Source: Candidatus Omnitrophota bacterium
Lineage (GTDB): Bacteria; Omnitrophota; Omnitrophia; Omnitrophales; Aquincolibacteriaceae
Length of the DNA: 64,000 bases
Reading direction: 5' to 3'
Assembly: GCA_030698625.1 (NCBI GenBank)
Contig: JAUYMS010000042.1
Span: 92,150-156,149 of the forward strand
Both the position numbers and the translations under genes were made by a program. A model generated the notes under the pieces. That model ran no database searches. It saw only the letters and a program-made list of their open reading frames with translations, and was not told where the DNA came from. Shown here piece after piece: positions 8,911-64,000 of this stretch. Numbering within the stretch: position 1 is the first letter of the stretch; every line of letters begins with the position of its first letter.

Positions 8911-9039
8911 CGGACTTCACGCCTCCTGTCGGTAATGAAGTGAATGGTAAGCTTATAAACCAATGCCGACGGATTCAACCTTTATCTTAGGGAGGCGGTA
9001 CAGAGCCCTACTCGGAGGCCGTAAATAGAATGAGAACCA

Positions 9040-18066: not shown

Positions 18067-18069
18067 GGA

Positions 18070-19023: not shown

Positions 19024-19104
19024 CTCCTCCAGCGGGGCTCAGGAATCCTCAAAACATGTGCTCTGGGCAGAGTTTACACATTCTCTGCTCAAAATGCAAT
19101 TTAC

Positions 19105-19612: not shown

Positions 19613-19740
19613 ATCGCAAGCTCAAAAGCCTGGGGAAATCCCCCGTCGAAACCAGCGGGGGTTTGCTTCGGCGAGAGACGTTGAAGCTTTTCGAGTTGTG
19701 GGCAAATCGCAATGATCAGAAGGCGTACTAAACTAAGTCG

Positions 19741-20562: not shown

Positions 20563-20588
20563 GTCCTATCACAAAAAAGCTTAGCATA

Positions 20589-20810
20589 CTACGCTGTGAC
20601 TTCGACCACTTTTTCTTTTGAGCGATGCCCCGATACGAGCGTCAGGCAGGACTTTGGAAGATCGAGATGTCCACTGAGGGCTTCAAGAACGGCCTTGTTA
20701 GCGCGGCCTTCGTTGGGGGATGCTTTCACCCACACTCGGAAGTGCGTCGGATCAACCTCAACAACTCGAACTTGCTTCGCGTTCGGTTTCGTCTGTACAA
20801 ATAATTTCAC
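20589..20810 (-). CDS. DUF167 (YggU-like) small protein.
   Basis: 73 aa. GRANKAVLEALSGHLDLPKSCLTLVSGHRSKEKVV matches the YggU family pattern. Its stop overlaps the HK start. Confidence 0.55.
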   Translation of the reverse strand: MKLFVQTKPNAKQVRVVEVDPTHFRVWVKASPNEGRANKAVLEALSGHLDLPKSCLTLVSGHRSKEKVVEVTA

Positions 20811-33506: not shown

Positions 33507-34022
33507 ATGTTTAGGAATACTTTTTTATTTATATCGGTAGTCACCCTAGCATGTCTCACCGGGTGGTCGATGGGATATCGATTACACCTCGAAGCCATCC
33601 CTGACTATTTGCAGAACTACACTCCCAAAGAAATGCGTAAAATCGATCTCATTAACGGGCAGAGTATCGTCGGCGAAATCGTGAACGAGACCGACGAATA
33701 TATCAAACTCCGCTTTGAGGGCGGTCATATCATTTTGCCCCGGGAAGAAATTGAGGCGAATACGCTGATCGACGAAAGCCGCCTAGGGTCTGACGAAATC
33801 AGCGAGCTCATGATCCGCGATGCGAAAAGGCCGTTTATCACGCATCACGAAGATCTCAGTCTCGTGACGACATGGAAGGAAACTCTCCGCGAGCTGCAGC
33901 AGGCGCCGAAACCTCAGACCGGCGGATTACAAAATTATATGGATCAGGCACAAAGGGCCGCCGGCGAACAGCAACAGAAGATCGCAGAACATCAGCAATT
34001 GATGGAGAAGTACTCGGGGTAA
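33507..34022 (+). CDS. Hypothetical secreted or lipoprotein.
   Basis: 171 aa with an N-terminal hydrophobic segment ending LACLTGWS (lipobox-like). The rest is Gln/Glu-rich. Confidence 0.5.
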   Translation: MFRNTFLFISVVTLACLTGWSMGYRLHLEAIPDYLQNYTPKEMRKIDLINGQSIVGEIVNETDEYIKLRFEGGHIILPREEIEANTLIDESRLGSDEISELMIRDAKRPFITHHEDLSLVTTWKETLRELQQAPKPQTGGLQNYMDQAQRAAGEQQQKIAEHQQLMEKYSG

Positions 34023-36139: not shown

Positions 36140-39100
36140 TTACGCACTTATGTCGATGAGCTCTTCGCGGATTAGACTCTCCTCGATGTACTTGCCGAGG
36201 TCGACAAGGTACGCGTCACCCTTAGATCTGGCATTGGGGAAGATGTCTTCAATGTGCTGGTCCAGCAGAGCCGCTTGCTCAAGCGGGTCTTTAACGCCGC
36301 GAATAAGTTTGGCAGGTTCGAGAAGGGCTACCGCCAGAAAAGCCAAGCCCTCGAAGTCACCGCGATCGGCGGCCTGCGGATCCACAATAAAATTGGCGGC
36401 CGTCCCGATATTTTCAGGCAGCACATTTCTATCCGAAAGAAGCGTGGCCACACCCGCTTCGCTTTCGCCCACATAAGAAGCCACATGTTCAACCGCGACA
36501 ACATTGACGAGCGTATTCAACCGCGGTAGCGTGAAAAGATCGCCCGCATCCTGTTCCTCCTGCCAGTGAATCCCGTTATCACGCTTCAAAAATGCCCGTT
36601 TCAAGACGCGTTCCAGAATATCGTCGCTCCCCAGAATTCCCACCAGGGGTTTCGCCCCCGGATGCTGCTTCTCGAATTGATCCAAGGCCCGGAAAAGCAG
36701 GTACAGTGTTCGCGGACTCTTCTCAATAAGCCGTTCAATCCAAACCGAGTCGATAAGGACCTGGCCCATGTCGGCGACCTGCTGCTGCATTTTCTCGTTG
36801 AAGCGCGGCGTCATGACCACGCGGCCTTGACCCAGTTTTGTGAGGATCGTGCTTTCGGTCGTTTGCGGCATAATTCCGGCACGCTCCGAGTAAACAGCAC
36901 GATTCAGGAGCCCCGACAACAGGGTCACCAGAGCTTCGGTAGAATGCTCTTCCAGTCTTCTCGGCAGAATCTGCGCGCGCGGCCCATGAAAGATCCGTTC
37001 GCCTTGAGCCGTGAGAAGTTCGTCTGCAACTCTCAATTCCGAGCGCTCGGAACCGTCAGGGATCTCGCCTTGCCCTAAGAGCTGCTCTAGAACCGGTTCA
37101 TAATCCCGCCTGCCGACGTCAATGAAATCCCGCGCAATGGCTACTCCCACTTCAAAATCGAATTTTTCGAATACTCTGATACCTGCGTCCAGAACCCTGG
37201 ACCGCTTATTGAAATTTTCGCGCCAGATGCCTGATAAGCCCTTTCTCAGATCACGATCCAGCTTTTCCCAGAATTTTTCGATCACGTCGCCATCGATGTC
37301 CACAGCACGCGGGTTGATAGAGTTCATGACAACGCGTCCCGTGTAATCGATCAGGAAGTCACGCGAGGGCAGATAAAGTCCCGGCTGAACATCGGCTACA
37401 TCGTATTCGATCCCCGCCCTTAAATAAATGTCGTTAGCGTTCACCCAAAACTCGGTAGGGATATCCGACATAGAAACGGTTCCTGCTGACCGCACTTTTA
37501 GTGTTTTCTGCTCGGGCAGCCACCAGTCAATGCCCCCTTCAAAATCGTCCCGCAGCTTAAATTCAGGGCTTAAAACTACAACATCCACATCTTTGTGTCT
37601 GAGCAGGTCCTTCGCCTGGACCCGTTGATTCCATAAGTCGGGCGCTATGCTGCCGATCACGATGCCGACGGCCCCCCGCTCTTTAAGAATACGATCCGCC
37701 GTTTGCAGAGCCCGTAATCCTTTCGCGGCATTGGGAGGAACAGGATCTTCCTCTTCCATTTTCTGAATCTGCAGTTGGAGAGTTTTCATGAGCTGCTTCT
37801 GAGCATAAGTCGGCTTCTGTGCCTGAATCATCATCTGGCTCATTGACCGTAGTTCGGAGCGGTAAGGGTCGTCGTCGAAATCGAATTCCTCGGCAGCATG
37901 TTCGTCGGCCCGGCGCTGCAGATAAGGATGAGCGAACTGCTGACCCGAATGCTTAATGAAAATGGGCGGCACCAATTCTGAAAACTGTGCCGCGCCGACC
38001 GGCATACCTTCAGGGGCTCCGTTCATGACGGAATACGGGAGGCCCAAATCAATGGCCTCAAGCAACAGATACCTGGAAAGGTTCTCCCCCATATTGAAGC
38101 CGCGCATAAATCTCCATGAGAGCATTCCGCCGGGCGCAACAGTGCTCATCAGGCGGCGGACGCTTTCCGTCCTGAGATCGACCCCATCGGTAGCGTTAAG
38201 AAAGACAAGGTCGAACGGTTCCTCTCCGAGCTGACCGGTCTCAATGACCTCTTCGATCCTGCCCGGCACGGTCTCAATGCCGTAGGCATCCAGTTTAAGG
38301 CGGTTCTCAAAATCAAAGCCCGAATTATTCCCGACGAGCTCGAACTCAAAGGTTCCGTCGGCCTCCAGCAATGCCTTAAGCCTAATCAAGAACTCTCCCT
38401 TCCCCGTAGCCACATCCAATATGCGGAGTTTTTTCTTATCCGCAAATTCGCTTTTCAGGATGTCGATGAACGCGGGAACTTGTGTTTCCGCCTGGACGGG
38501 TTTGCGGTACTCTTCAGACAGGAGATGGGAAAATCTTGTGAGGCGCTGAACACTATCACGCAAAGCTTCCGCATCGAGATCGAATCCTTGATCGGCGACA
38601 TGGTCCAGCATGGCCTCAAACCCCCTGCCACCAAAGGACTGTAATGCCTCCATCACGGCGATATCGAGTTCGGCTTTGGCACGAAGCTCCGGATTCGTCC
38701 TCAGCGTAAAGATCGTATATGGGTTGCCGTTTCTAAAGCTGAGCTCCGGAGAGGAATTCGGCCCCCCCGAACTCGCTCGTACATAGGCGATTCTTTTTTC
38801 AAAATCATTCTCCGGATAAGATTCGACCAAATTAAATTCATCGATCGAGATCTTGCCGCCCAATCCGTAGATTTTGGCAAATTCTGTCAGCTGACTGCCG
38901 GTTCCGTCGCTTTCACCGACGGAACTAACCATGATCAGCCCCTTCCGGTTAAGCAGAGAGCGGAGCATGAGAATCGGCCACTCGTCCGGATCAAGAGGCA
39001 GGGGCTCATAACTGAATGTCCAGTCGACATCGCCCTTTGCAACGGGTTCCTTAAGAGGGTCCCCGACACGAAATCTCGCGGACAAATCTTCTCCCGCGGC

Positions 39101-42100
39101 AAAGTTAAAATTTCCCGCTCGATTGTCACGAACCCATTCAACGATCCCCGGATTGATATCCGTATAGACAACGTCGGCCCCGCGGCGGCTGAGCTCCGCG
39201 GCCCAGTCGCCGAGATAACCGGCGATTGTAAGAACCTTGTCCCCCTCCTTGATGCCCAACGTGTCGAGCAACGTCTCATCGTCCGGCACCGTCGATTGAT
39301 GCGGGTTGCTGCCGAGCAAGTGTTCATGGAAAGTCCCGATGTTACGTTCCGCGAGCATCTTCTTAATGTCAGGAACGACATAGTCTGATCGCAGCTCGGA
39401 CCGCTCGGAATCGTCAGGGGTCTCGCCGCTCGGTTCCTGCCTTTTCTTTACTTCGCTTTCAGGCACGAGCTCCTCTGTCGTATCGTCAAAAACCAGTTCC
39501 TCAAATTCTTCGACAACTTCGTGCTCTACCGCAGGTGCCGGTTCCCTTGAATCAGCCTTTTCAATTTCGGTTGTCGGTAAGAATGCCTTTGTGCTCTTCG
39601 CGGTCTTCTTCTTCTTTTTCTTGGACTTAGGCTTTGGCCGCTCCGTCTGCACATTACCCGTAAAACTTGTTCCACCCTTCCAGACAACGCCTTCAAATAG
39701 CGGCGGGTATTTCAGGACCTGCGCAATAATGCCCCATGTCTCAGGCGATGGGATGGCCCCTTTTTCCCATTGCGCCACGGTTGGCCCCATTTCCTTAATG
39801 CGTTCTTCATCTTGTATAGGAACACCATGTCTGTCGGTAAAGACAAAGCCGGCTTCTCGGAGCGTATAAACCATATCGAGCTGCGTCATTCCGAGGCGAA
39901 CTCTCAGATCATAGATCCTTTCCGATAACGGAAGGTCGCGGAGCGCTTCATCGAGGTCCTCGATTCCCGTAATAAACGCGATCGGGTCCACGAGCAGCGC
40001 CTCGCCCAGCTTTAAGACAGTGCCCGATTTTGTGGGCAAGGCGTCGCGACGCTCCACCGGAGAATAAGTGTTGCTCGGTATGCCAGCCGCACTCGCGGTT
40101 TCTCCCTTCTTCTTTCCCCGCGCCTCCCGAATCAGTTCTATTCTTTTGCCGATAATCATTCCCGGTTCCTGCATGGTTTCACTGAGGCCCTCCGGCAAGG
40201 GTTGCGGTTTATAAGGAAGCGGCATGACAATAAACCTCTCCCATAGCGCCCTCAGAATCTCTGCGGCAAGTTTTCCAACTCCGGTGTCGGTACGTGCATG
40301 TTGAGGAAGGTCCTCGGTGATAACGAATCTGACACGTGCGATATTGGCAAGCGTAGGTTCGAATTCAGAAAGTCCCGCGACAATGATCTTGAGCGTTGCA
40401 ATACGCTGAGCATCGAACGCTTTGGCGAGTGAGTCTAGGAGCCCTCTCGTCTCCGGCCAAAAGGCCTCTTCAATAAGCGCTTGTGCCGAATCCGGCAAGG
40501 CCTCTCTGAGGTTGGCAAGCAGTCCTGAAAACTCGTCGGGGTCATTAGCCGCTATGGCTCGTTTCAGGGCACCCGGCCAATCCTCGGCCCGAAGCTCAGA
40601 ACGCTCTCGAATGATTTTTTTTGCATAAATTTCGGCTGCGTCCACAAGTGCAGACAGAAAGAGTCCATCCGCGAGATCGAGCCCTCGCGCCACAAAGAAA
40701 TCCACAAAGACCTTAGGCACCCCCCTATCTATAAGGTCTTTTGGCTGCGGAGCAACAAGCTCACTTTCCGAACCGATAAATTCCGAGCCTCTATAGAAGC
40801 GCATCAGCCTGCCGATTAGCTTCTTGGAGAACCGCTTTTCATGCGTCAGGTAGTGCGCAAGGGCTTCAGCTTCGCGCAGGTTTGCGGCGTCGGAATACAT
40901 GAGCTTCGCCTGAGAAGTATCGGGAAGAAAACCAAAGCTATGAACGGACTTCTTTGCCCGTTCGATGCGTCGCGGCGCCTTGAGATCAATGCTTGAACCC
41001 TCTCTATGTAAGCGGCCGTAATAGGCTTCATCAAAATCGAGTAGTTGCTTCTTGGCCTTGGCTTCCCGAATGGATTCCTCAAAACGTTGAAAAAGGATTT
41101 CTTCCTCCAAATACTCCAACGTTTCTCCAAGATTGTCCTCATCCACGATGCGGAAGAGCTGCATATCTTTTGGCGCTATGAATTGCAATCCGTCTTCGCG
41201 GCGGAGCAGCCGTGTCTCAAACTCCTTAAGGTAAGGCTCCCAAAATGAACGCCCGACTAGGAGAATCGGCCGCTTGGTCACTTTAGCCGTCTGCATGAGT
41301 TGAACGATGTCGAAAAGCCGGTTGAAAGTCCCCACCGCACCCGGCAGAAAGACATACGCGTAAGCATTGTAGGTCATCAAAAGTTGATGGTTGGATTCGT
41401 CATCGACAATAATGTGCCGATCGCCGAAAAATTCTTTGTCCGCAGCTAAAAATTCTCTCAATTGGTGATTCTCGGAGGCATCGTGCAGGACAGCTTGAAA
41501 CTTGTCAGACCAGCCTTGTTGCTTGGAGCGGTCCCTCAGACGATTATAGAGACGGCCCGTACTGGCACCCCGTATGAATACTTCGTCGAGCTCGGAAACA
41601 TAACTAGCAATCTTTTCCGCGATATTCAGTTTTCCATTTTCCCGATGAGGCCGGCCCGCCATCATCACAACCCGCTTCTGCCGGCTTAAGGTTTGAAGAC
41701 CTTGCTTGATCTCTTCATTGATCTTTTCGACCTCGCGCTGCGTGGTCCGATGAGGCGGATTCGTTTTTGCTTCCGCCAAAATAAAATTAACCGCCTCTTC
41801 GGGGTCGTCCGTAATCAGCGGAGGATCGGACCGGTAACCCAGCTGCTCGGAGATACCTTCTCTTTCGATCGTCGCAAAGAATTCGTCCATGAGCGGCTGC
41901 CAAAAATCCTTCCCGAGAAGGGCCACGGGACGCCGGCGACGCCAAAATTCGAAGAGTTCATCATGGGTCCCAACTCCGCCGGGAAGAAAGATGGACCCCA
42001 GGATATTTTCATGCAGGGCGATCTTGCGAGTCACAAAGCGTTCATAGCTCTTTACGATTTGGGTGTAAGGATTCGTGGTCTGTTCCCAGGGCAGAAGAAT

Positions 42101-45100
42101 ACGAATCCCCTGTGTCGGCAAGGTCCTGTACTTGACGTAAAGAATAAGCGCCGGAATCAAGAGGACAAACAACGTTGCCGGAATAAGGCTTGGGACCATC
42201 CATCCGAAGACGGAAATAAAAGACGGGCTCAGAATAAATAGGACGATCCCGGTCATCACATTAAATAAGCTGGTAAAGAATAGAGTCATTTCATAAAGCT
42301 TCTTGGCTTGCAGATAGCCGAGCATCGGTGCTTCCATCTCGCCCGGCCCCGCGCCTGTGCGCGGCGGTATCCCTTTTTTGTAGAGCATCTTCCCCAGTTT
42401 TACCCCAAGCTTGTAGTACGGATGATCCGGCGGTACCCTCGCGCCTCCGAGCACCGCAATAGCCGGTGTCCACTTATTGACTACCTCGAGGATAGTCTCT
42501 CGCTCCGGGATAACATCTTCGATAAGTGCCCGCAGGGATCGAAGCCGGTAGACGGGCCCATCATAGCCATCACTAAGATCCGATAAATCGGGGCTCCGAA
42601 GCTCCGAGCGAACAAGGCTCGCAAACTCGATTAACTGCGAAACCCAGTCGGGTCCGAGCTCCGCCTCAAGCCACTCGGCGGTACGGGGCAGCGCCTGGGG
42701 TACGGTCTCTAAGCCTCGCATCAGCGTAAACGTTTCCGATGCGGCACCTGGTTTATAAACAAAGGCATCCAGAAAATTGCCGAAGTCCGCCATCCGGGCC
42801 ATCCGGTTCAAAGCCTTAAAATTCTTGGCAACATAAACCCATTTCATGGGGATTTCTATGCCCGAACTTTCGATATGGAAAATGATGGCGGATAAGCTCC
42901 CGCCGATATCCTTCCTGCGATAGCGGTTGATAATCTCGTGTTTCAGCGTCGCCGCCTTGGCCGGCTGCTCGCCGCCGAGGAGATGGGTAATCACCTGATT
43001 GTATGCCGCATCCGAATTCTCGAGAAGCGGGTTCAAAATGACCGAGCGGATAAGTTCGCGATCAATATCGTCAAGGACCTGCAGGTTTTTCCGATCGAGG
43101 TAGGCGATCCAATCCCCTTCCATCTGCAGGAACTGACCCGGGTGAATATCGGAGTGAACGATACCCGTTTCAAAAAGCTGGTAAAAGAAGTTTTGCACCA
43201 GCACGGATACAACCCCTTTGGCCGAGGCCTGGTCTGCGGCTGTCACAGTTGTCTCTCCTTTTGATACTTTGGTCAGGAACTCATTAAACGAGGTTCCGTG
43301 CACGAATTTTTCCCGCCGCAAAAGCGCGGTATGAGTTTCCTGCACTCCGGGGACGAACAGTTTCTGAGGCAGGCCGTTGGCCGGACGAAACTTATCTGCT
43401 CTCTGAGAATCATGGTGTGTCTGCGCCGAGAACTCTTTGTTCTTCGCATGATAATCAGGATCATCGATTTCAGACTCGACACGCGTTTTGGCCTTATCGA
43501 GAAGGATCTTCAGAAACTCATAGAACTTGACCTCCTCGGCGCCTCTCTTTTTGCCGCGTTTGATGAGCCCGTCCAGGAGTTGATGCCCGAACTGGTGGAG
43601 TTCACCGGCGCGATACGCGGCATTCGGGTTCGTAATCCCGTCCGCCCATTCGTTGCCGTCTTCATCGACATTTCGAAACACGGTCACGATGGAACCGCCG
43701 CCCACGTATTCTCCCCATTCCATAATCCCTTTGAATAGAGGCGCATACTTGGGGTTCTTCTTCGCTTCTTCTTCGAGTATCATGTAGGCCTGCAGTTTAT
43801 TCATACCGCGCACGGCATCGAAGACATCGGCGATCTTTTCTTGATCATCATTCGAAAGTTCGAAATACATCCCGGCAAGCTGCAAGAGCGTAACCGCAAG
43901 GGACCCGGCGTGTTTAGACACCTCGACGGCGAGTTCGATCGGACTCACTTTTTCGCTGAAAGACTTGCGTTCCGTGACGAGATTCATATCCGCCATCTTC
44001 TCCATGGCGGCGTCCTCAAAGTGCACATAGGGAACGTCCCGGGGGAAAAAGACATTGAGCCCGACACCGTCTTCGGTTCGTCTGAGCTGTCCGCGCACTC
44101 CCGTAATAAAGGTTCGAATGCGGGTACGGATAAGGCGGTGGGTTTCCGGAAATTGGGCTTCGTCGGCAATATGCTCAAACCCCTTGGTTTCCAGATGCTT
44201 GACATAATCCCGAAACAGCATGTCTTCGATTCCGTCATTGGGATAGCGGTCCTTCGGAACCTGCAGCGAGACCTGTGAGAGTGCCGGACCCAGGAAATAA
44301 AAGATGTCCTGTGCATCCATGTCCGTGGCGATGGTCTCGGTAATGTCGTTGGCCACCTGCCGGGCCTTCTTCGCTTTGCCGACCTCCACATACTGGTTGA
44401 TGAAGTGCTGCACTAGGGAGCGCTTTGCCTTCTTGGAATAAAGGAGTGCGTTTTCGCCGTCCAGCATAATGGAACGAATCATGAGGTAGATCACGACCGT
44501 GTCCAACCGGTAGAGCGCCGGGTAAAATTCATCGAAGAAGATCATGCTCAGGTAGCGAATGTCGCGGATCATGTCGGCCGCCTCGAAATTTGCGCTGTCC
44601 AAGCGTGACGCATTTTCTTCCGCCTCTTCTTGCTCTTTCGAATCGGCCCTGCCTAAGGTCGGTGTACGGGCTTTTAATTCCCCGTAGTAAGCGAGATGAG
44701 CAACGCTCTCGATATTGCTCAATTCCATGGTCTCACTGGTGAAGGCCCGCCACCATTTGCGGGCCATATATTTCTTAAAGCCTTCGTCACTCTGGCGCGT
44801 GGAGATGGCCTCTAAAAAGAAAGGAAGGCGATCTCCCGGTTTGATAAACCGCACGAGCGTGTGGGCAATTTCGAGAAGCATCACATCACTGCCGGTCTCC
44901 AAAAGACGGTCTACCTGTTCCCAAAACCATTTCTTCATGACTTCCATGTCTTCATGGGACTTGGTTTTCTCCTCGGATAAGACATAAAGCCCTTCACGCA
45001 AGATGGTGCGCGGCAGATAGCTGTACTTTTGCAGGTAGGCAGCGGCCTCGTCGAAGTCCTTGGAACGCTTGATCATCTCCCGGAAGGCAATCGTCGCCAG

Positions 45101-48100
45101 GCTCATCGCCGAAAAGCTCTCCTGAGAGAGCAACGACACGGCCAGGAGGCCCTCGAAGTCTTCCGGCGTCTGGGGATAGTCTTTTTTCTGCCGCAGTTGT
45201 GCCATAAGGCTCGTGGAAATCCGGCGCCAATCCTTTTCGTATTCCAGCCGGGGCATGTTGACAAAGGCAATGCCCCATTGGTTGACCACGCGGATGGCCT
45301 CGACAAGCATAGCCTCCGTTTCCCCCTGCTCCGACAGGTGAGCCATGCGGCTCAGCGTCTTCTGCTTAACGCCTTTCAAAACTGAGCTGAGCCGCGAGCG
45401 CTCTTCAAGACCGATTGTCCAAGATTCTCCGATTTGGGCCCGATTTCTTCTTGCGATGGCGTCCTCGAGCCAAGCCATCAACTCGTCGACTTGGTTTAAG
45501 ACCCCCGTTTTTTCGGTCGACAGCCTGCGATTCAGCGTCGATACAAACTCGCGGCGAAAGGGCTGCCTGAAGAGATCAAGCAAAATAACCTTCTTCATTT
45601 CCGGCATGTAAAACTGGCGCCATTTGTCGTTTTTCCTAGCGGAGAATCGAATGGACCAATGGTTTTTAGCCTCCAGATACCCATAAAGAAACTCTGAGAG
45701 TTCTCTCATTCTTTTTTCCCGGTCCGTCGTCGGATCTAAGCTCCCATACCAATCAAGCAACGCCTGCCGCAGATCATCGGCACTCATGGCGTTGACCTCT
45801 TCCATGATCTTCTCAAAGCGGCTGGAAAATTCGGTCGTTGCCTCTTGCGCAAACAGTCCCCAATCAAACGTCACACCGCCCTGACCGGGACGGCGCCTTG
45901 AGCGTTCACGGAGCTGCGCCATTCTTTCACCCGCATCACCGGCAAGCCGCGTCACATTAGCGCCCAGAGCAAGAATCATGTCCGCTCTCTCCATGACCGT
46001 AAGCTCTCTGCGGTCCAACTGCGAGACCATGTGCTGCGTCGTCGCATTCATGAGAATGCGCATATTGGAGCGAAGCTTTTGCACTTCCTTGTCGTCCACT
46101 TCGTAGTTGATTTGGGCCGACATAATTTTGCGGACATCAAGACTTATCAAAATGCGCTCCATGAATCGTTCGGCATCAATTAAGTTCACACTCATTTCGG
46201 TCATGAAAGTCTTAATCTCATTTGTATCTACGGCGTCAAACGGGATCTCGTCCTGGAACATAACCATCCGCTCAATCTTCGGGGTGTCCGACCACCGTGT
46301 CATGACTTCGACATCGCCGATTTGATAAGCGGCCTTCCCGTGAATCAGCTGCGTCCGCACATAAACACCCATCAGGCGGGTATCCCACGAAATAAGGAAC
46401 TCCCGGGCATCGCCGAAGCGCTGCTCATAGGCCTCCGCGGCCTTCTGGCGCAGCTTTGCGAGAGCCGGGAATGCCTCCTTGAACTCTTCGTATTTTTTTC
46501 CGTCCATGGCGGAACGCATCGCCTGCTCGCTTAAGCCAAGCAATTCCTCCGGAGCGAGCGGCAACCCTATGCGTTCAAAGATCCGGGCTTCCATCATCCT
46601 CGCAACGCGCTCCGGAGTAAAATATTCGACGAATTCTTCGCGGGTTACTTCGTAGACCTCGTCATCGCCGGGAAACAGGAACCCTTCCGAGCGATGCAGG
46701 ACAATGTCATGCAGCATCAACAGCAGCACGTTCTCACCCTCCTCATCAAATCCCAGGTTCTGGTTGCGCAGAAATGTCAGCACCGCCTCTGTCCATTGAT
46801 CACGGGACAAGTGCCGCACCAAATGTCCAAACTGGTTCCAGAACCGCGCCGGCTCAGCCTTCACAAGATCTTCCACAAATCCTTCGGGAATTTCGCTGGG
46901 GATCGTATCGTCGATCCGGAGGGCATCCCAATCAATGGGATGAACATCATGGCTCAATTTGTCTAGATGAATGAAGCGGACGAACTCGCGCAGGTTGGAG
47001 TAGCGCATCTCCATGGAACCGTGCACCGGATCAAGACCGACAGCTCCTGTCGGCATAGCCTCGTCACCTTTTGCTTGCTCTTCTGCACTTTTCTGTGCAA
47101 CGCGCGCACTCCATTTTCGTTTGAACGTAAGCGCCCCGATCGGATTCACTCCCCTCTGATTGAGCTCCCACAACATCGCCAAGTCGGCTTCAAATTCATT
47201 AAGCCTCCAGATACCGAAGCCATAAATGTCAAAGGGGTCGAGATCCCCGCGTTTAAACCTATGCGACCTCTCGATGTGCCTGAGTTCATGCATGAGAACA
47301 GCCAACACTTCCTCCTCGGTATCAAGAATCTTTAACATGCCCGTCGTGATATAGATCTGACCGGCAGCGGAGGCAAAGGCGTTCTCCTCTTTGTCATCGA
47401 TAACGGCAACACGTGCCTCGTGCGTACGGATAAGCCGCTGCAACAACCCGTTGAGGAATACGCTCGTTGGATGGTTTTCCATGAGAATATTCTTCTCAAA
47501 AAGGGTCCGTTGGACGGCGATCGACTGCGCCTCAAAAAAGCGGTCACGGAAAGTCACGGCACGAAGTTCCGAGCGCTGTCCGGTTTCGACGCGCCGTAGC
47601 TCTTCGAGTTGTTCGCGTAGCCCTTCCTCTAAGCGGCGGAAGCGGTGCGGCCCCCGTGCTCCGAGCAGTGCCAGCGCCCGGCGATTGTCGAAAACCGGCG
47701 GATTCATCACCTTTGAGGGCGGGTCTACTGATAGGCGGCTCGTTTCTTCTTCTGAGAGTACGCGCAACATCTTCACCGCCCGCAACACATCTGCCGGGGC
47801 ATAGTTGTAACCGCTGGCAATATTAATGATGTCGTGTTCGCCTCGAATAATTTTTGGGAGCTGAGAAATTTCTTCCAGAACCGCCACTGCATCCGACAAA
47901 TGCACGTAATCTCTTGTATACCCGGCAAAACGCCCTTGATACCCCTTAAAAATCGGGCGAATCGCTTCCGGAATAGGATGGTTCGAAGACGTATCTTTCT
48001 TGCCGAAGAAGCTGGTGGGTCTCACAATAACAACGTTGTCACGCTTTTCGAGCAGCCGCTCACCTATCATCTTTGCGAGTTTGTAAGGATAAACTTCAGC

Positions 48101-54100: not shown

Positions 54101-57100
54101 TCCCTCAATGTCGCCCATGGGGAAAAAGACGATGCCGTCGAGGTTCAACTCATCCATGACACGAAGCGCAAAAGCAACGTGTCCCCAGTGCGTGGGGTCA
54201 AAGGTACCGCCAAAGACGCCCAGATGAACCTGCGATTGTGGCTTGGAAGCCGACATGGCCTGCCCCTCGTGAACGCGAAGAGTCGCATAGGGCTGAATCA
54301 CCCCGTCACGAATTTTTTGTTCGATTGATTTCAGATTCGCGATGATCTGCCGCTTTGTCGCCAGAAACCTTTCGGTAAGCGCCTCATCATCGACGGCATC
54401 AAGCTCCTCTTCAGTGGGAAAAGCCGCTTGAATCATACCGAGGGAAGGCATGCCCTCGAGCGGCAGTGTCTCATCCAAGGAAATTGTTTTCTCGATAATC
54501 GGATCCCCGATGGCCTCGAAGGCGCGGCGGGCTGCGTGCCGGATTCTGGCAACAGGATGATCGTAATACACGGTCAGCGTATAGAGTACATCGGGACTTA
54601 CCTCTAACATGCGTATCGGATCCGAATATTCAGCCAATGTCTCCATCGCCTCAACCACGAGAGCGATCTGATCGTCGCGCAAATCACGCTTCGAGAGGTG
54701 ATTTAGATACCGCGCCGCCGTACGGATGTGAAGGGTGTCTCTGTTTTCTACCGTATCCAACGGGGCGCTGAGACGATCGAAGGCCTTCTGCGCCGCCATG
54801 CGGACATCTACGGAGCGTTCGGTCTTCGAAACATAGTCCGCCCAACGGATCAAGACAACATAGATATCAGGATTGATTTCCAGGAGCGGCTCGGGACTTT
54901 CGAATTTCGCCAAAGCCTCCAGAATGCTGACAGCGAGATCCTCTTCCTTCGGCGTCAGCCTTTCACTCTGATAGGCCCTTAGAAAGTTTGTGATGACGTG
55001 AACGGACTCGACGATAGCATCATCCAGCTGTGTTTGAGCAAATCGCGCCGGATCTGCATTTAAATTGTGGACCGCCAAAACACCCGCTGCACGGAAATCT
55101 GCTTTTGATAATTCACCCAATGCATAATCGCGCATTACTTTATCGTCACCGAAAGTAACGCGCGTCAGGAATTCAACGGCTGCACCGCTTCGTTGCTCAC
55201 GCATAGCACGCAATGCCGCGTGTACCAGCCCGTCGTCTTCAGTGAAATCAATCGCTTTGACCAGAAAATCAAAAACCTGAGGCGTTCGCACTTCTCCCAA
55301 TTCCCGAAGAGCACGGATGAGAAGCCCACGGTTCACCGTAGGATCTTCCTGATAGAGAAGTCTTTCGATAATCGTAAAGTCATCCAAGCGTGCAAGTGCC
55401 TTGAGGATCGCATACTGCACGATAGGATCCGCCTCCGGTTCTTCATAGACCAGCTTCAGCTTGCTGATCATTCGGTTCCGGTTTTCCTCATCGAGGTCTG
55501 CCCCCAAATTCCCCAGGGCCTCCACGACGACCCTGCGCACGGGAATGCGGCCCCGCTCCACCAGGACACGCTCAAAGAGGCTGTTGACGAGCGCAATGCG
55601 TTCATCTCTTGTTAACCCCTTGAAGTGCCCGCTCAAGAGTACCGCCTCTCGCGCAAGCTCGGGGACTTCCATACGCAAACCGAGCATGGTGAGCATGTAC
55701 CTCAGGAACGGATGAATCGTAATCGCCGTATCCTCACCGCCGTATCCCTCTGAAGCCATACGCAGATGCTTGATAAAGCGCACGCGATTATGCACGTGCC
55801 TCGGATGCGTTGTGGCCTGTAGGCTTTCGGGCGGTAGATGCCCGTCGGGATATAGTTCCGGGTAAGCAGTGGCAATCTTCAGCATCTGACGGACAATAGG
55901 TTCGAGAACGCCTTCGTGCATCGAGTCGTCGTATTCGATGCCTGCGAGGCGACGAAAAATCATAAAAGCATATAAGCTCTGCTCTCCGTACAATTCCTTT
56001 GGCAACACATCCTCGTCGGAAAGGAGAACGTTGAGCTCTTCGATCATCTCCACGATTTCCCTCTTCTTACGAAGCTCTTCGGATTGCAGATTGGTTTCAG
56101 GGGAAATCGCCACCTCTGAGAGTTCGCGGCGGGTCGGCATTGCGATGCCGACAATCTCTCTGCCGTGCTGTTCTAAGAATGCCGACATCGTCCTGGCGCG
56201 GGGATCCACACTTAGCGCTAATTCCTTGCGGACAAGTTCAAAGGTCTGCTTTAAGTGAGTTGCATACTCCTCGCGACCGTAGCGCATGGCGCGGACGAGT
56301 TCTCCGAGCTGCTTGTCGAAGCGCGCAAAGGCCTTGCCGTCGAGCACGGAACGAAAATCACGCATCAATTCGCTGGAAAGGCCGCTTACCTTAAAAATAC
56401 GGCGCGTGAGTCCCTCGCGAAGATCAATGACGCGCTCCACGCGGGACGCCTCATCGCGTAAGCGCCAAAATGCGATACGAATGTCGTTGGCGACAGCATA
56501 AGGTGAGCGTGCCAATACGGAACCAAAACTCACGGAAATTTGCTTCGCACCTAGCTCCGCCGTCCGTTCGCGAACCGTCTCACGCCCGCGCTCGTCATAC
56601 TCACGCACCTTGTTCTCCGAGTGGATCGCGAGAAGCCTCTTTTCATCGTAAACTCGCACCTCATCCAGCACCGGAACGAAAAGGTAGTTTGGGATCACCG
56701 TTTTTGCCAGGAGATCGGGGAAGTCTTCGGTGGTCGTTTTCATCAGAAGCGCCGTCGGATGCTGGCCGGTCGGGCCCGACTCGCCGACACGTACGGGCCT
56801 CAAATTCGTCCACTTATCGCGGCCGAAATTCGGAAGGACAAAATTTAATCTCGCGTCGGGATAAATAATATGGCGCGCACTATCGCCCACCGTGCGCACA
56901 TTAATTTCCCTCGTCAACTGTGCGCGCAAGTAGGACAACCTGTTATCCGCGTTATCGTAGTAGTTCCTAAGCACATTTTTCATGAAGACCTTGCTCAAGG
57001 GTTGCTTTGTCAAGGTCTTCAGCGAAATCCGGCCCGTCGAAGGTATCGCAAGCGTTTCCGTCGCGCCGCCCTTGGACATAAGAATGACGTGGTCGCTGTT

Positions 57101-60100
57101 GTGGCGGTAGCCGATAAAGAGAACGTTTCGCAAATCAGGGCTGACCATGGTGCGTACGAAAAAGTCGCCGTCAGCGATGTGTTGGTTCAGGAATTGAACT
57201 TTTCCGGAAAGGTGAGCTCCAAAATTGAAGTAGATATTCGGGCCAACCTGCCGCCGGCCCAAATTAACCTGTATGACGCGCGCCTGAGACGGTGCCATAG
57301 GAGCGGTCAATCCCGCTAGGATCTCCTGCGATGTCCGGTACAGCAACCGGTGGTCCGCTAAAAGATCCCTCTGCCATTCGACTCTTAACTCAGAGCGCTG
57401 CGACCCATCAGAAATCTCAATCGGGGACGGCCCACGGGCCTGGAACAAAGATGTAGACGGCAGGATGACGGTTCGGGATGGTTCGAAAACGTCGGTCAGA
57501 CGTGACTGCGCGACGGGCAGATGCGGTGCGGGCGATGAACCGTATGGCACATAAGGCGCAAAATGCAGGACTTCTTCCTCGCCTTCGGCTGCGCTGCCTT
57601 TCAGAGTCCGGCCCGTGAAAATAAATAGTTGCGCGGCATCGCGGTCGGGGGCCCTGACATCTATGACAGTGCCCGGTTCGAGTCGGGCGAGCATGGCCTC
57701 AGCCGAGGTCGGGTGCGAATCGGGCCGCGGAGCGAAACGACTGTAGATGCGGAATGCCTGCCGGTCGAGTACTTCGTCCACAGTGAGAGCGCCGGCCCGG
57801 TCCATTTCACGGCGGGCTCTGCGCAAATACCTTAAATCACTGATGGTACGCGCCAAGTCATGCAGGTGTGCGGAAAGCGCTTCCGCGTATTCGGCGGGAG
57901 CAAAGGATTCCTCCGGTTTGAGATAGACGGCATCATCGCTAAGTTTCAAATCATAGGCCTCGAAGAGCCGGCGAAGGCGGTCGGTATGCTGTCCAAGATT
58001 TTCGGACAGAACACGAGGGGGAGCGATGCGGCTAAGAAAGGGCCAAGTCCGGGACCAAGCCCAGGAAGGTCCGGATTTAAGGAAGGCCCGTTCGTGAACC
58101 GCCACAAATGTTTCAGCACCTAGGAGCGCCTCAAATGCGGCAGTCCAATATTTCCGGCGCAGTGTCACAACACGCGGCTTGAAGAATCGCGACTCTGCTG
58201 ACAGCGTCCAGACTCTCGGCGGCTTTTTTCCGAATCGCCCGGCACCGGCCGGGACGTACACATAATATTTCGCCAGCCCTTCCTGCAGCGCGCGCCTTGC
58301 CCAGTCGACTTCCGTCCAGGTCGCAAGCGGTCCCCGCAGGGCCAAGTCAATGCCCCCCTGCGTACCGACTCCGACCAAGACTTCGACCGGCCTGCCTTTT
58401 TGGTCGCGTAGACGGCGAAGATGTTCTCTCAACTCGTTGTAGTCGGTGACCGCCACGGCCGCGGGTTCGGCGCTGCGTGGCTCAAACGTTATGCCGTTGA
58501 TAGTTGCGCCGGTCAGACCCTCGGCGATCTGTTCTACGGTTTCCTCAAACACCTCTTCGGCCTCCCTGCCCCGGGGATCAATCGGCCTTCCCAGATGAAT
58601 TCTCAGGGAAAGCGGCGAAAGTCTGGAAAAAAGTTGGCTGAAAAATTCACCGCGTTTTTCCCGCAACACTTTGCTGCGCTTGTCGAGTTCATGCCGGTCT
58701 TCACCGGCCGCCCTGCCTTTCTTCGCCTTTATCTTATACTTCCTCTTCGCGAGCACGTACCTTGCCCGAGCGGCACGCCACCTGGCAAAGAAAGTAACGA
58801 TACGAGTCTCGCCTGAAATTTGGGTCGGAATCACAAACCGTCCTTCGTTTACGGCAATGCGCGCGAATGTCCCGTGCCAGTCGCGCTTCCATTCGTCGAT
58901 CATGGCACCGGGTTGTATCTCGGCGCGACCCAAAGGAAAGAAGGCCAGACTTTCTCCCGCGCGAACCGCGGCTTGAACTTTGTCAAAGGTTCCGCTCGGC
59001 CCGGCAACTGCCTCCTGGAGCTGTTTGCCCGAGAGGCTTTCGGCCCTGAGCAACAAGAGGATGTCCCTCATCGCCCGTTCAGCCCCATTGCCCAGCAGCG
59101 TCATTGTCAGGGCATCGCCGGGCAGGATTCCGGCTTCTCGGATCATGTCGGGCTTACGCAAGTCGTACACCTGCGATCCCGCATGCAGGGACGCGATAAA
59201 GTGCGGTTTTTGGGGATAATCTTTGAGGATGGCTGCGACCTGATCTGCAGGAAACTCGAGGCCCGCCACCCCTTCCCACCGGACATTTTCGTCCACTTCA
59301 ATGGCCAGTCCTTTGCGGATCAAGACCTGCTGAAGTTTCCCTACTTCCGAGGGCCGGGCAACAAAAAGCGGCAGCCGCCCCGTGCGCAGGTAGAGTTCCG
59401 TGACCAGAACAAGGCCGTCCAGCGTGCTGATGTGGTTGGCGGCGATAATATAATTGTCGCCCTCAGGCAAATTTTCAATGCCTGTAAGCCGGACAAAGTA
59501 CCGGACAAAAATGCGGTAGAACCGCAGCCACCACTTGGCCGGAGCAGGATAGTCTTTAAAGGCCTTGATCGGTGCAACCCTTAGCGGTGGTTCCGCAACC
59601 GGTTTGTCGGGCAAGAGCTCGTCCTGCTGTTCGGTTCTTAACTCAGAGCGCTCGGGCATTGTTCCGGCGGTTTTGTGGTAAAGTTCCAGATTATTCCGAA
59701 GGGTGCGGTCTTTAGAGAAATTGGCGATTACATGGTTACGCATAATGCGCGAGTTGAATTGCCCGGCCTCAGCCCGAGACAACACATTTTTTATTCCCAT
59801 AGCAACATCAAAATCTCTGCGGTCGGCATTGACGAGCATGCCGAGATCAGAAATCGGAAAAGGCCGTTCGGCGTAGCGCGGATCAAACGAAGCACGAATA
59901 CCGGGAATGTCGGTCGCGATCACGGGCTTGCCCATCGCCCAGGCTTCAAGGATCACACGTGTCAGCACCTCGTCTTCCGACATATGGATGAGCGCGTCCG
60001 CGAAACCATAGAGCTGAGGCAATTTGGTCTGCGGTACAAACCCGAGGAAAATCACTTTGTCCCGGAGCGCTTCCGGCAGGCGCCGGATCCGGGCCCGGAC

Positions 60101-63100
60101 CTTACGTTGATATTTCCCGCCACCCGCCCCCGCCAGGACCAGGTAGGTATCCCGCCCCGCGGTCCGGGCATAGGTCTCAAACCCGTCGATTGTCTCGACA
60201 ACGCCCTTCCCCTCGACCATGCGGCCTACATAGAGCAGGACATCCGATTTCGGGCGATCGATTTCCAGGAGGGCTTTCGGCAGTTTTTGCGCCCCGGCGA
60301 GCTTGTCCGGGTCGAAGAATTCCGTGTCCACTCCGTGCGGAATGACAATAATTTTCTCATCGGGCAATCCGTATAAAGCCTTTGCCTTTTCGGCGTGATC
60401 CGGTGTAATCGCGACGAAGTAGTCGGCAAGTCCCACGGCTTTTCTGAAGACATGTTTAACGTGCTCGGGAAAATCTTCGTCAAAAATAATCTCCATGTTG
60501 TGACCGTGGATGCCAAAGAAGATCTTCTTTTCTTCCGACTTATTGTTGATCTCCTCTGCCACGGACGCAGCGGCCAAAGCAAGAACACCCCCGTGATGCG
60601 CATTTAAGACAATCTTCTTATCGGGCGAACGTTCGAGGATGGCGGCAACACGTTCTCTGACGACTTTAACAGCGGCCAAAGCGTAAGCCTCTAACTGTTC
60701 TTCACTCATATCTTTGAAGGCCACGGTCTTCGGCATCGTAGGGTGGGCGTCGAAAAGCGGCACCTCGTCGAGTTCGATCAGAGACACATCAAAGGGAAAC
60801 TCTTCCGGCTTCGTACCCTTGAGCGCTGTCGAAACAACCGCGCTTTCGATTCCGTTCTCGGCATACCACTCCGGCACCGTGGTGACATAGGTCATCGTGC
60901 CGGAACCGCCGGCACGGCTCGGCAGGTAAATAGAGATGTCTACAAGGGCGAGATCTTCACGGGCACTGTTAATCAGTTCACGCAGAGGTAACTCCGGTTC
61001 GTCGGCAGGCAGCGCCTCTACTACCGGTTTCGCAGCCGCTTTGACCTCAACCCGGTAAAGTGGTAGCTCCACCCACCTATCCGAAGAAGGCCTGATGTAA
61101 TCAATCGGTCCATACCAACCGCTCCCCGCTATCCAGACAAGGGTCCCGTTAGAAGACCCCCGTTGATGGGTCCCTATGTCGCCGATCAAGAGTTTGTGCC
61201 CGACAATTCTTACGGCCGCATGATCCCGCGAGACATCGCCTTGATACATGACGATATCGCGGTCCGTGTAGCGGCCCACAGTCACCCTGGCCGATTCCTG
61301 CTCTTCACGATAGCCAACATGCAGGGCCGGGTCGGCGGGAAATTTCCCAACATAATGGCGGGTCCCTTCATCTTCGACAATTTCAACCTCACCGCTTTCC
61401 AATTCCTGAACCGTTAGAGCAACACTTGAAAGCTTAAACCGCCCTTCGCGCACAACCGAACTGCGCTCCTGAATTCTGGGATTTGCAACACGACCCACCA
61501 GAATCTCCGCTTCCTGCAGGTCGTGCTGCTCACGCGCCTGTGCGAACCACCAAGGAACGGCATAACGGCGCTTATGCAACTCAAGACCGGTCGGTGTGAT
61601 GCCTGTGCCCCGGGCAGTATCGCGCAACCTCACGAATTCTCCGTTTGCATTCACGGCAAGATCGAGCTTAAAGACCCAATCTCTGACATCATCCCAACCC
61701 GATGCCGGAACCGTCGCTATGTCTCCGTTCGTAATACGCTTCTGGATTTGCCCCGCCAGCGTTGGATGAAGATCGTCACCGGCCTCGTTCAGAGTCTTGA
61801 CGATCCAGTAAGGATGTCCTCCTCCATCGACCATGAATCCTTCGAGACGCTTCCACTGGCCGGCTTGTCCCTCCTCCGCAATCTGAGAATGGGAAATGCT
61901 CTTATAGGTCATGTAAACTTTCCCTTTGTAACCGATCACCACAAAGTAGCGAACCGCGCGCTTTGCCCCCTGCAATTGCCTGCCGTGCGAATGTCTCTCA
62001 AAAGCCTGCTTAAACATAAGCACTTTATCTTCCTCACCGCGGCGGCCCACCTCGTCTGTGAACGCGTCTAAATCCTCAGCCTCCGAAACCTCCATATCCT
62101 CATCGGTAACCGTCAAGCGCGGCACCGGCAGCTTTTCCTTTTCGAACCGCTTCTCTCCTGTGTGAAGTACCCGGTAGCGACCGATGAAGATATTAAAAAA
62201 TTTAAGATACTCACGGAGTGAGCGGAAACCTTCAATGCGCTTCTGGACAGACTCGTCATTCTCAATCAGGTACAGGAGATTGAAATACCGGGCCATGACC
62301 AGACCGGGGGTTTGCCCATATTCATAAAAGTAGTGCGTGACTGCCAGTTTAAAGTCAGCCAGAAGATCATCATCGAGATACCGTAGGAATTTCCTCGCTC
62401 CGTTATCGAACAGATAGGTTCTCGCCTCCTCAGAAATCGTCTTCCGCGCGTCTTTGATGTCGCGGAGGATATCCCTAGGCTCGAAAAACTTGTCGTCACC
62501 TACCTGAAACCGCAGTTGGGACTTTTCGAACTCATAGAGAATATCCAAATCCCGTTCGCTGCCGAGCAGGCCCTGCAGATAAAAGCGAAAGGCCCGAAAT
62601 AAATTTCTCGAGGCGGCCTGATCGACGAGGCTGCCGTCCGACTCCTCATTGGGGATAATGTTGATACTCTGGCCGAGATCTTCATCCGGCTCCACCTCAA
62701 CCCGAAAGCTGCGGCGATTCTCAGCAATGGGGAAGGCCTTCGCATAGCGGTCGAGTGCCTGTTGAATCTTCACATTCACTTGATCCGGCTCGTCATAGTC
62801 GGAGGGCATCAACTGTGTCACGGTAATGGAGTCATAAACCGACTCGTCAGTCCTGAATACTTTTTCTGCTTCGTCAACTAACAGCTGTTCCCCTCGCGCC
62901 CGAATACGCGCCGCCTTTTCCAACTGTTCGATAAACTCCTCGTCTTCCTCACGCAACAACCGCTGCACCTCTTCCTCGGGCACAAGCTCGCCGTTTTCCT
63001 CATAGCGAATCTTACCCTCGACGTCAACCTCGTATTTGATGCCCTTGTAGAATATTTGCGTATCATCATCCGAGCGCAATTCCGACCGCACTTTGCTGTT

Positions 63101-64000: not shown

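Follow-up and report, generated by a model that had tools for sequence, protein, structure and literature searches.

Viral polyproteins (viz. those of picornaviruses and potyviruses, and the nidovirus replicase) yield many mature proteins from one ORF by way of short conserved recognition sites, which co-evolve with the protease of the same chain. MARTX toxins contain RTX-type repeats and are exported by type I secretion; a cysteine protease domain within the toxin, activated by InsP6, cleaves the linkers after Leu and so releases the domains.

The described proteins that come closest to the locus considered here are the multi-enzyme giants of the Omnitrophota. The "Archaeovorin-type" giants combine glycosyltransferases, methyltransferases, peptidases, HEAT, Lysine_decarbox (LOG) and ROK domains (West-Roberts et al. 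2023, bioRxiv 10.1101/2023.11.21.568195), and the "class 1 multi-enzyme metabolic clusters" reach up to 147,155 aa (Nielsen & Lui 2026, bioRxiv 10.64898/2026.06.07.730766). The length thresholds of these studies are >=30,000 aa (10.1101/2023.11.21.568195) and >=10,000 aa for a catalogue (10.64898/2026.06.07.730766); both suspect C39 or S8 domains of carrying out a cleavage for which, as they note, no site is known. The giants catalogued so far number 900 or more.

A giant multi-enzyme gene of Candidatus Omnitrophota

Our analyses have identified, on the minus strand of the window (the whole stretch of 64,000 nucleotides analysed), a 27.9-kb frame that is the 3' part of a genuine giant gene of Candidatus Omnitrophota, a phylum assignment for which 9 neighbouring proteins provide exact NCBI matches from a Candidatus Omnitrophota MAG, located on a 253-kb contig (the one with MDP3920996-MDP3921027). 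The stop-free frame extends over 36143..64000 and ends at a stop codon at 36140-36142, its 9286 codons bearing out the open-ended frame of at least 9283 codons given in the preliminary description, and it is ~6.5-fold longer than any other open frame of the window. Because this frame is still open at the right edge of the window and lies on the minus strand, the missing part is the N-terminus; a JGI metagenome scan for an upstream continuation found nothing. The GC contents at codon positions 1/2/3 (62/39/61%) are of the coding type throughout, Pfam domains from at least 14 distinct families occur all along the ORF in a single frame, and no tandem DNA repeats were found in the gene by TRF. Window positions 24023-45879, which take in the 3' 9.7 kb of the giant ORF, match an independent Logan assembly of SRR13727534 with 100% identity and no gaps. 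The earlier view of a single real, very long and non-repetitive ORF that joins many unrelated enzyme domains was right.

Homologues of the giant were retrieved by an exhaustive HMMER protein search, and the homologous giant ORFs sought in the genomes of relatives are indeed present, dozens of multi-thousand-residue ORFs being found in other MAGs and, according to the literature, in long-read genomes as well. The best identity in a scan of the GTDB representative genomes with a 3-sequence alignment as query was 52%, the MAG of the window not being one of these representatives. The C-terminal 1486 aa gave zero matches in a word-indexed set of 5.8 billion proteins, so this region is either very poorly conserved or such giants are under-represented in that set. 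The probability that the frame is an artefact, either an assembly chimera or a series of ordinary genes joined through sequencing errors, is in our estimation negligible: the sequence does come from a short-read MAG, but the identical independent assembly, the uninterrupted coding-type frame with its domains over the whole length, the homologous giants, and the in-frame presence at every module junction of the RSELR delimiter described below all argue against it.

The giant chain consists of at least 11 protein-sized modules of 272-1766 aa with 1-3 domains each (Table 1), and for at least one module homologues of free-standing size exist. All but one of the domain assignments made earlier from the translation were recovered by Pfam/NCBIfam, viz. 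FHA, GT4, PlsC, HEAT, a nucleotidyltransferase (cytidylyl/NadD-like), epimerase, HExxH peptidase and ABC1/UbiB, together with two ROK (one of them weak), two LOG and two SAM methyltransferase domains, to which two HTH domains can be added. The exception is the GT-A call at aa ~4200-4450, for which sequence searches of Pfam, NCBIfam and PDB gave no support. A second hydrophobic hairpin (aa 7239-7282) is inserted within the LOG region of module 6, and the C-terminal module 10 is homologous from end to end to the C-terminus of P0016, a 6894-aa Omnitrophota protein. Cysteine is nearly absent from the chain, the visible 9286 aa containing 2 Cys, both of them in the ROK kinase of module 4.

Table 1. 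Features of the giant ORF and of the second delimiter-bearing gene (ORF2); residues are numbered within the visible part of the giant or within ORF2.
Feature	Position in window	Strand	Residues (aa)	Basis or remark
Giant ORF, C-terminal 9286 codons + stop	36140..64000	-		ORF calling, Pfam, independent assembly
RSELR delimiter 1	63074..63088	-	305-309	
Module 1: FHA + GT4 glycosyltransferase	59888..61285	-	906-955; 1034-1371	Pfam/NCBIfam
RSELR delimiter 2	59636..59650	-	1451-1455	
Module 2: PlsC-type acyltransferase	59288..59494	-	1503-1571	Pfam; HX4D motif = HISTLD
RSELR delimiter 3	57383..57397	-	2202-2206	
Module 3: HEAT, NadD-like nucleotidyltransferase, weak ROK-like kinase	52142..55321	-	2894-2958; 3262-3449; ~3638-3953	
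RSELR delimiter 4	52085..52099	-	3968-3972	
Hydrophobic hairpin 1	51896..52015	-	3996-4035	Start of module 4
Module 4: ROK kinase + NAD-dependent epimerase	47927..49693	-	4770-5063; 5114-5358	
RSELR delimiter 5	47561..47575	-	5476-5480	
Module 5: M48 HExxH peptidase, long helical region, ABC1/UbiB kinase-like	43010..47416	-	5529-5582 (M48); 6821-6997 (ABC1/UbiB)	
RSELR delimiter 6	42596..42610	-	7131-7135	Start of LOG module
Module 6: two LOG/Lysine_decarbox domains	41138..42463	-	~7180-7621	
RSELR delimiter 7	40589..40603	-	7800-7804	
Module 7: two XRE-type HTH	39701..40150	-	7951-8006; 8074-8100	Pfam
RSELR delimiter 8	39389..39403	-	8200-8204	
Module 8: two SAM methyltransferase domains	38189..39232	-	8257-8341; 8522-8604	Pfam
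RSELR delimiter 9	37847..37861	-	8714-8718	
RSELR delimiter 10	37031..37045	-	8986-8990	
Module 10: C-terminal module	36143..37030	-		No assigned function
ORF2, second delimiter-bearing gene	1..4194	-		Start Met 4194-4192; runs off left window edge
ORF2 predicted N-terminal signal peptide/signal anchor, MLKITTWLTAIIFFASNFVAAPQSYAAA	4111..4194	-		Read from sequence
ORF2 leader, TIKI/TraB/EreA/ChaN-fold	2635..4062	-	~45-520	Invariant H71 E99 E152 R455 H483; Q68 invariant in the smaller alignments
ORF2 RSELR 1	2260..2274	-	641-645	Predicted disordered linker directly 3' of leader
ORF2 RSELR 2	1441..1455	-	914-918	
ORF2 RSELR 3	979..993	-	1068-1072	
ORF2 RSELR 4	187..201	-	1332-1336	

Judged by its domain content, the giant belongs to the already reported Archaeovorin-type, class 1 multi-enzyme kind, which means that the preliminary description was mistaken in regarding the architecture as not described, since Omnitrophota multi-enzyme giants are the subject of two preprints (2023, 2026). 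Many distinct enzyme Pfams tile one giant polypeptide with no dominating repeat, and the phylum, the non-repetitive and divergent chain of GT1/GT4, methyltransferase, ROK, peptidase, HEAT and LOG domains, the interspersed transmembrane segments (putative ones here, in the form of the two hydrophobic hairpins) and the poor sequence conservation are common to this giant and the Archaeovorin-type. The visible length of 9286 aa, with the end still open, lies below the 30,000-aa threshold of the 2023 study. The visible part of the giant, from which the N-terminus is missing, contains no SecA, C39 or S8 domain detectable by Pfam. A recurring delimiter, a TIKI-like leader and the exclusion of cysteine, all present here, are unmentioned in both preprints, and the RSELR delimiter, its genome-specific variants, the signal peptide with the TIKI-like leader and the cysteine exclusion appear to be undescribed. 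The delimiter, the second ORF that bears it and the cysteine exclusion were likewise absent from the preliminary description.

The RSELR delimiter and its variants in related genomes

Exact copies of the pentapeptide RSELR number 10 in the giant and 4 in ORF2 (1-4194), against ~0.03 expected, and they fall between the domain blocks, in flexible linkers. No one-mismatch variants of the motif were found, and none of 29 neighbouring genes contains it. This total lack of degenerate sites, which is stricter than for most protease sites, is an observation that speaks against cleavage. Literature searches for the strings RSELR, RAEVR and GARLA returned software names and surnames and nothing else.

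The delimiters are also found in Omnitrophota relatives, where homologous module boundaries bear forms of the motif that are particular to the genome (of the type R-[S/A]-E-x-R, or else GARLA) and different genes within one genome share the same form. Thus, the boundary of the LOG module marked by delimiter 6 of the giant bears, in relatives, the relatives' own motif, and delimiter 10 aligns by BLAST to approximately residue 2700 of P0070, which has RAEVR sites at 2701 and 2724. Tandem delimiter sites that flank 20-aa spacers also occur. Family-wide, the Arg-x-Glu-x-Arg core is invariant and ~30% of the sites have Ala or Pro at position 2, while the GARLA class lacks both flanking Arg residues and the Glu. 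RSELR is the form taken in this genome by a family-wide Omnitrophota delimiter (R-[S/A]-E-x-R, with GARLA in another lineage), and, as in polyproteins, short conserved sites bound independently folding units.

A TIKI-like leader domain

The family ORFs for which an N-terminus is available begin with a signal peptide followed by a conserved leader of ~500 aa from the TIKI/TraB/EreA/RRSP superfamily, which is characterised by a 2His/2Glu catalytic motif and a conserved basic residue (PMC6254334). The leader of ORF2 is of this kind, and we infer from P0016 that the giant itself also begins with such a leader. The leader adopts the alpha/beta fold of TIKI, built around a parallel beta-sheet, and 42 sequences show no variation at H71, E99, R455 and H483, the spacing of which is RRSP-like. 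It differs from the superfamily in a ~280-residue helical insertion (model residues ~195-470) and in having Gln68 where the 2His/2Glu motif has its first Glu; this Gln does not vary in alignments of 13 and 9 sequences and is present in >=90% of the 42-sequence alignment. Another difference is the lack of a significant sequence match in Pfam or PDB: no family of the Pfam TIKI clan scored above its gathering threshold (below threshold, PF04187 was found in 3/13 members with a best E of 0.0055, and PF18950 was also found), and a PDB profile search and a Foldseek search gave nothing significant. In the AF2 structure prediction, made from the 9-sequence alignment, the RSELR site lies in a disordered coil and is not docked into the leader pocket. 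In the papers examined, no domain of the TIKI superfamily is reported to head giant polyproteins as an N-terminal leader. Beside the candidate catalytic His, the sequences QTAH and QDAH track the RxExR and GARLA classes of delimiter in 5/5 and 4/4 cases, although both this co-variation and the concordance of delimiters within genomes are confounded by phylogeny and paralogy. Since the superfamily includes esterases (Ere), the non-catalytic ChaN and PMT C1, the leader may have another role than proteolysis.

Possible functions of the delimiter

RSELR looks like the missing cut-site signal of the Omnitrophota giant proteins, and we lean, at a little better than even, towards the giant being a polyprotein that is cut at its delimiters, a possible agent being the TIKI-like leader of the same chain. 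The gene would be translated as a single chain, in which the delimiters would serve as recognition sites of a dedicated sequence-specific endopeptidase, the prime candidate for which is the leader itself, that releases the modules or nicks them apart. The outcome would be a co-localised delivery, in fixed stoichiometry, of regulators and of enzymes that handle sugars, lipids and nucleotides.

The delimiter could instead be a docking motif in the linkers of a chain that stays intact as a membrane-tethered mega-scaffold, the partner being e.g. a chaperone/holdase, a factor for secretion or targeting, or an adaptor by which the modules are organised. The exposed position of the delimiters, the occurrence in the chain of HEAT repeats, as scaffolding elements, and of hydrophobic hairpins, and the genome-level concordance of the delimiters, which implies a trans-acting reader, are in keeping with such a scaffold. 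However, a hydrolase-type leader with intact catalytic-type residues heads every such ORF, for which processing is the more natural explanation, and the tandem sites around 20-aa spacers and the module homologues of free-standing size suit the release of separate products; we therefore regard an intact scaffold as rather unlikely. Still less probable, and indeed very unlikely in our view, is a post-translational modification (e.g. of arginine or serine) that regulates the linkers with no cutting. The invariant Arg-x-Glu-x-Arg core and the presence in the chain of kinase-like (ABC1), FHA and glycosyltransferase domains would suit a modification site, but the GARLA class dispenses with the core residues and no co-variation of the motif with a modifying enzyme was found. 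The frequency of Ala or Pro at position 2 indicates that a Ser acceptor is not required, and a Ser phosphorylation site is ruled out by these replacements, which occur in many lineages.

A signal at the level of DNA or RNA (a recombination or cassette junction, RNA processing or internal translation initiation), to which the peptide would be incidental, draws on the skewed codon usage at the sites, where the Ser codon is TCN in 95% (background 68%) and the first Arg codon is CGY in 74% (background 45%). The skew of the Ser codon is what one would expect if a site inherited from a common ancestor were under strict purifying selection. Against such a signal, the 10 copies in the giant differ freely in their third positions, in the family of codon used for Leu and in the codon of the final Arg, the flanking DNA is unrelated, Rfam and TRF searches found no Rfam family or repeat, and the variants across genomes preserve properties of the peptide and not nucleotides, and we consider it highly improbable. 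The codon variation and the empty Rfam and TRF results rule out a DNA repeat or an RNA element as such.

If cut at its delimiters, the giant would be a cellular counterpart, on a large scale, of the way in which viruses express their polyproteins, and the genome-specific delimiter variants parallel the pattern of site-protease co-evolution. It differs from the viral systems in being a cellular gene, located on a chromosome among ordinary bacterial genes and with no viral hallmark genes, and in the fold of its candidate protease. With MARTX toxins the giant shares the organisation of a single very large, in its own case presumably secreted, bacterial polypeptide in which unrelated effector or enzyme domains are split by linkers, and the MARTX effector RRSP has the TIKI fold of the ORF2 leader. 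What sets the giant apart from MARTX is the strict pentapeptide delimiter and an N-terminal TIKI-like domain as candidate protease; the MARTX hallmarks CPD, RTX and C39 were not found by Pfam in its visible 9286 aa or in ORF2, and no trace of type I secretion was found either.

A more far-reaching proposal, which we put forward tentatively and consider on balance quite unlikely, is that these giants are polyproteins exported by signal peptides, and hence cysteine-free, from which the TIKI-fold leader, by cutting at the delimiters specific to each genome, would release the enzymes at or inside an attached host cell. They would then amount to mega-effectors of a MARTX-like kind, with dozens of nucleotide-dependent enzymes and regulators and with a novel pair of protease and site, and the delimiter would provide a rule by which any such giant could be split in silico into its mature products. 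Confirmation of cleavage could also point to a new strategy of effector delivery in ultra-small host-dependent bacteria; without cleavage, the motif would still define the modular grammar of Omnitrophota giant genes. The combination of a strict, family-wide delimiter tuned to each genome with a candidate leader protease makes the question of a single or a cut chain directly testable, and a candidate substrate sequence for the ORF2 leader that includes the delimiter is ...DAPHRSELRAGEV...

Divergent enzyme domains in a giant open reading frame

The longest stop-free stretch in the window (9286 codons; Table) has a coding-like GC content of 62/39/61% at the three codon positions, and no tandem repeats were found in the gene. 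Because this minus-strand frame has no end yet at the window's right edge, the N-terminus of its product is missing from the window, and residues are numbered here from that edge; the long frame running off the window, noted in the preliminary description, is thus confirmed.

Pfam searches of ten overlapping pieces of the translation, repeated on segments cut at the RSELR motif described below, and NCBIfam searches of the same segments jointly support FHA, GT4, HEAT repeat and NAD-dependent epimerase domains. These runs also support a PlsC-type acyltransferase (motif HISTLD), a NadD-like nucleotidyltransferase, an M48 HExxH peptidase, an ABC1/UbiB kinase-like domain, two ROK kinases (the first one weak), and two copies each of LOG, XRE-type HTH and SAM methyltransferase domains. 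All of the domains read earlier from the translation were recovered in this way except GT-A, for which there was neither HMM support nor a PDB sequence match. Every NCBIfam score was far under the curated cut-off, indicating that the domains are divergent.

Nine ordinary proteins encoded near the giant are identical to proteins from a Candidatus Omnitrophota MAG (253-kb contig), and giant ORFs are already known as characteristic of Omnitrophota (PMC10066038). "Archaeovorin-type" giants with glycosyltransferases, methyltransferases, peptidases, NUDIX, HEAT_2 and Lysine_decarbox domains have been defined in this group (West-Roberts et al., 2023), as has a class termed "multi-enzyme metabolic clusters", which reach 147,155 aa and abound in GT1, ROK and methyltransferase domains (Nielsen & Lui, 2026); the initial claim of an undescribed architecture therefore fails. 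Neither preprint mentions motifs, delimiters, polyproteins, cysteine or TIKI-like domains, and a literature search found no paper joining "Omnitrophota" with "polyprotein" (Kizina et al., 2022, lay outside its scope and may hold a prior mention). According to the 2023 preprint and a 2024 survey (PMC11573180), the obstacle is that cleavage points or motifs are unknown. The gene type is thus known, and the delimiter grammar and leader described below, which appear to be new, turn the open question of cleavage points into a testable one.

Recurring pentapeptides at module boundaries

The pentapeptide RSELR, missed in the preliminary description, occurs 10 times in the giant ORF against 0.03 expected, and 4 further copies are present in ORF2, a second minus-strand ORF in the window. 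One-mismatch variants number 0 against 1.7 expected, and the motif is absent from 29 neighbouring genes (9574 aa). The sites, none of which falls inside a Pfam match, split the giant into segments of 272–1766 aa with complete domains in each.

Coordinates of the features and carriers of the delimiter motifs
Feature	Location or carrier	Remark
Giant ORF	64000 to 36143 (-)	stop codon 36140-36142
RSELR in giant ORF	aa 305, 1451, 2202, 3968, 5476, 7131, 7800, 8200, 8714, 8986	
ORF2	start 4194 (-)	runs off left edge
RSELR	P0011	14 copies
RAEVR and RAELR	P0098, P0070, P0016	
RSEAR	P0023	
GARLA, GARLS, GARMA	P0036, P0039, P0059, P0099	
GT39/PMT_2 gene	34023-35879 (-)	~260 nt downstream of giant stop
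Histidine kinases and receivers	17068-22252 and 28752-30185 (-)	
Peptidase_Mx-like/ATP-grasp pair	26119-28157 (+)	overlapping genes
662-aa ORF	13097-15085 (+)	no Pfam match
171-aa ORF	33507-34022 (+)	no Pfam match

With giant aa 7120–8215 as query, an exhaustive HMMER search retrieved 1640 relatives, many of them 2–8 kaa in length, and those named are Omnitrophota MAG proteins; a look for homologous giant ORFs had been proposed in the preliminary description. De novo k-mer counting revealed that long relatives (P handles in the Table) carry recurring pentapeptides of their own. Among 13 relatives having at least 5 sites, not one has a site within the stretch that is homologous to the LOG module (P about 5e-7), and for most of these proteins a copy of their own motif is found no further than about 25 residues from either end of the homology. 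P0010, which at first seemed to lack a motif, has RAEQR and RTEMR exactly at these boundaries, and the giant's RSELR at aa 8986 corresponds by BLAST alignment to about residue 2700 of P0070, which has RAEVR at 2701 and 2724. Hence, homologous boundaries bear different motifs in different proteins. The variants are shared by genes of one MAG (cosine similarity 0.69 within vs. 0.23 between MAGs; permutation P = 2e-4).

The GARLA/GARLS/GARMA class, which also includes P0017 and P0033, sits at the same module boundaries. P0098 contains P/S/T-rich spacers of 20–22 aa with a delimiter on each side (e.g., aa 900–926, 1766–1792 and 5897–5923; one example reads RAEVR-LTSVKSSTAQPSAVEGR-RAELR), and such spacers also occur in P0011 (aa 2347–2392); these resemble the spacer peptides excised from processed precursors.

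A conserved leader module

ORF2 exits the left edge of the window and the giant the right, so that the beginning of one putative polyprotein gene and the end of a second are seen here. ORF2 has a signal-peptide-like start; its first ~500 aa, which follow this start and precede the first RSELR, have homologues at the N-terminus of almost every long relative. A scan of the genome collection with this leader identified 74 loci, nearly all in Omnitrophota MAGs and often 2–3 per MAG; the first R-[SAPT]-E-x-R follows 518–749 aa after the leader start (median 587 aa) in 41/41 loci with enough sequence, and nearly all long leader-bearing ORFs have their delimiter motif ~5–15-fold above composition. 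ORFs that have both a leader and their own stop measure between a few hundred aa (421 aa at locus L043) and about 3300 aa, those that are open-ended are longer than 3800 aa, and 2–3 leader-bearing ORFs occur in several MAGs; given these graded sizes, the giant is the long end of a family and no separate class. It likely begins with a leader too, judging by the 6894-aa relative P0016 (452-kb contig), which has a leader near the N-terminus and a mid-chain LOG module, and whose C-terminal module aligns with the last one of the giant over the full length.

The leader is a candidate for the TIKI/TraB/EreA/ChaN fold. It gave sub-threshold Pfam matches only, to the ChaN "Tiki superfamily" family, and no significant Foldseek match. 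Active TIKI-superfamily enzymes share a 2His/2Glu motif and a conserved basic residue (PMC6254334), and the superfamily includes two sequence-specific endopeptidases (TIKI and RRSP) besides esterases and inactive members. The leader, whose invariant residues include H71, E99, E152, R455 and H483, has an RRSP-like spacing (Q68/H71 and E99, +28 residues; R455 and H483, +28 residues), but with Gln in place of the first Glu. Next to the candidate catalytic His, GARLA-class leaders have QDAH and RxExR-class leaders QTAH. The module after the first delimiter of ORF2 (aa ~700–900; window ~1494–2094) has a protein-kinase-fold-like reading (GEVYLVKD...ALKV) and no Pfam match.

Processing of the chain, alternative explanations and genomic setting

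The best-supported explanation, which we consider somewhat more probable than not, is that the giant gene would be translated as one chain, a polyprotein, which a sequence-specific endopeptidase would cut at the linker delimiters, and whose specificity would co-evolve with these sites in each genome. The obvious candidate for this protease is the TIKI-like leader, an assignment that we rate below cleavage itself and as less probable than not. In a second structure model, of the leader with the first delimiter, RSELR is in a coil (pLDDT 25–28) between two folded parts, which fits an exposed linker; no docking of RSELR was predicted, which is uninformative either way. It is rather doubtful that the chain stays uncut as a scaffold with the delimiter as docking motif, and the delimiter is improbable as a modification site. 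A signal at the nucleic-acid level is still less probable: the codons vary between copies (CGN TCN GAR YTN MGN) and the surrounding DNA is unrelated, so that the constraint acts on the peptide. Over 247 sites in the window and about 50 ORFs (loci L002–L075), Ser is TCN in 95% (68% background) and the first Arg CGY in 74% (45%), a skew that points to strictly selected sites of common descent or to a weak constraint on the nucleotides. An artefact is very improbable; a Logan contig assembled independently from run SRR13727534 matches window 24023–45879 ungapped at 100% identity.

Among the 10,684 residues of the giant and ORF2 there are 2 Cys, both in one CxC (giant aa 4933/4935), whereas Cys makes up 1.05% in neighbouring genes (P about 1e-45). 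Among 88 long relatives, counted irrespective of phylogeny, delimiter density is anticorrelated with Cys content (Spearman rho = -0.71; median Cys 0.05% in delimiter-rich and 0.53% in delimiter-poor proteins). Exported proteins are typically Cys-free in organisms without disulfide-forming machinery, so this exclusion agrees with the N-terminal signal peptide. However, the giant's domains that depend on ATP, NAD, SAM and NTP need cytoplasm and are at odds with export; one resolution would be delivery into a host cell.

The surrounding genes are those of a normal chromosome (viz. RND pump, 2-oxoacid:ferredoxin oxidoreductase, two-component systems, dTDP-sugar epimerase, Sir2 and others). Clustered between both putative polyprotein genes are three receiver-domain proteins and a pair of PAS-HisKA-HATPase histidine kinases that are paralogues (481 and 477 aa). 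A Sir2 deacylase gene adjoins the pair encoding a Peptidase_Mx-like zinc peptidase and a D-Ala-D-Ala-ligase-type ATP-grasp enzyme. The GT39/PMT_2 gene, for a membrane glycosyltransferase with C-terminal TPR repeats, is on the same strand as the giant and may be co-expressed with it.
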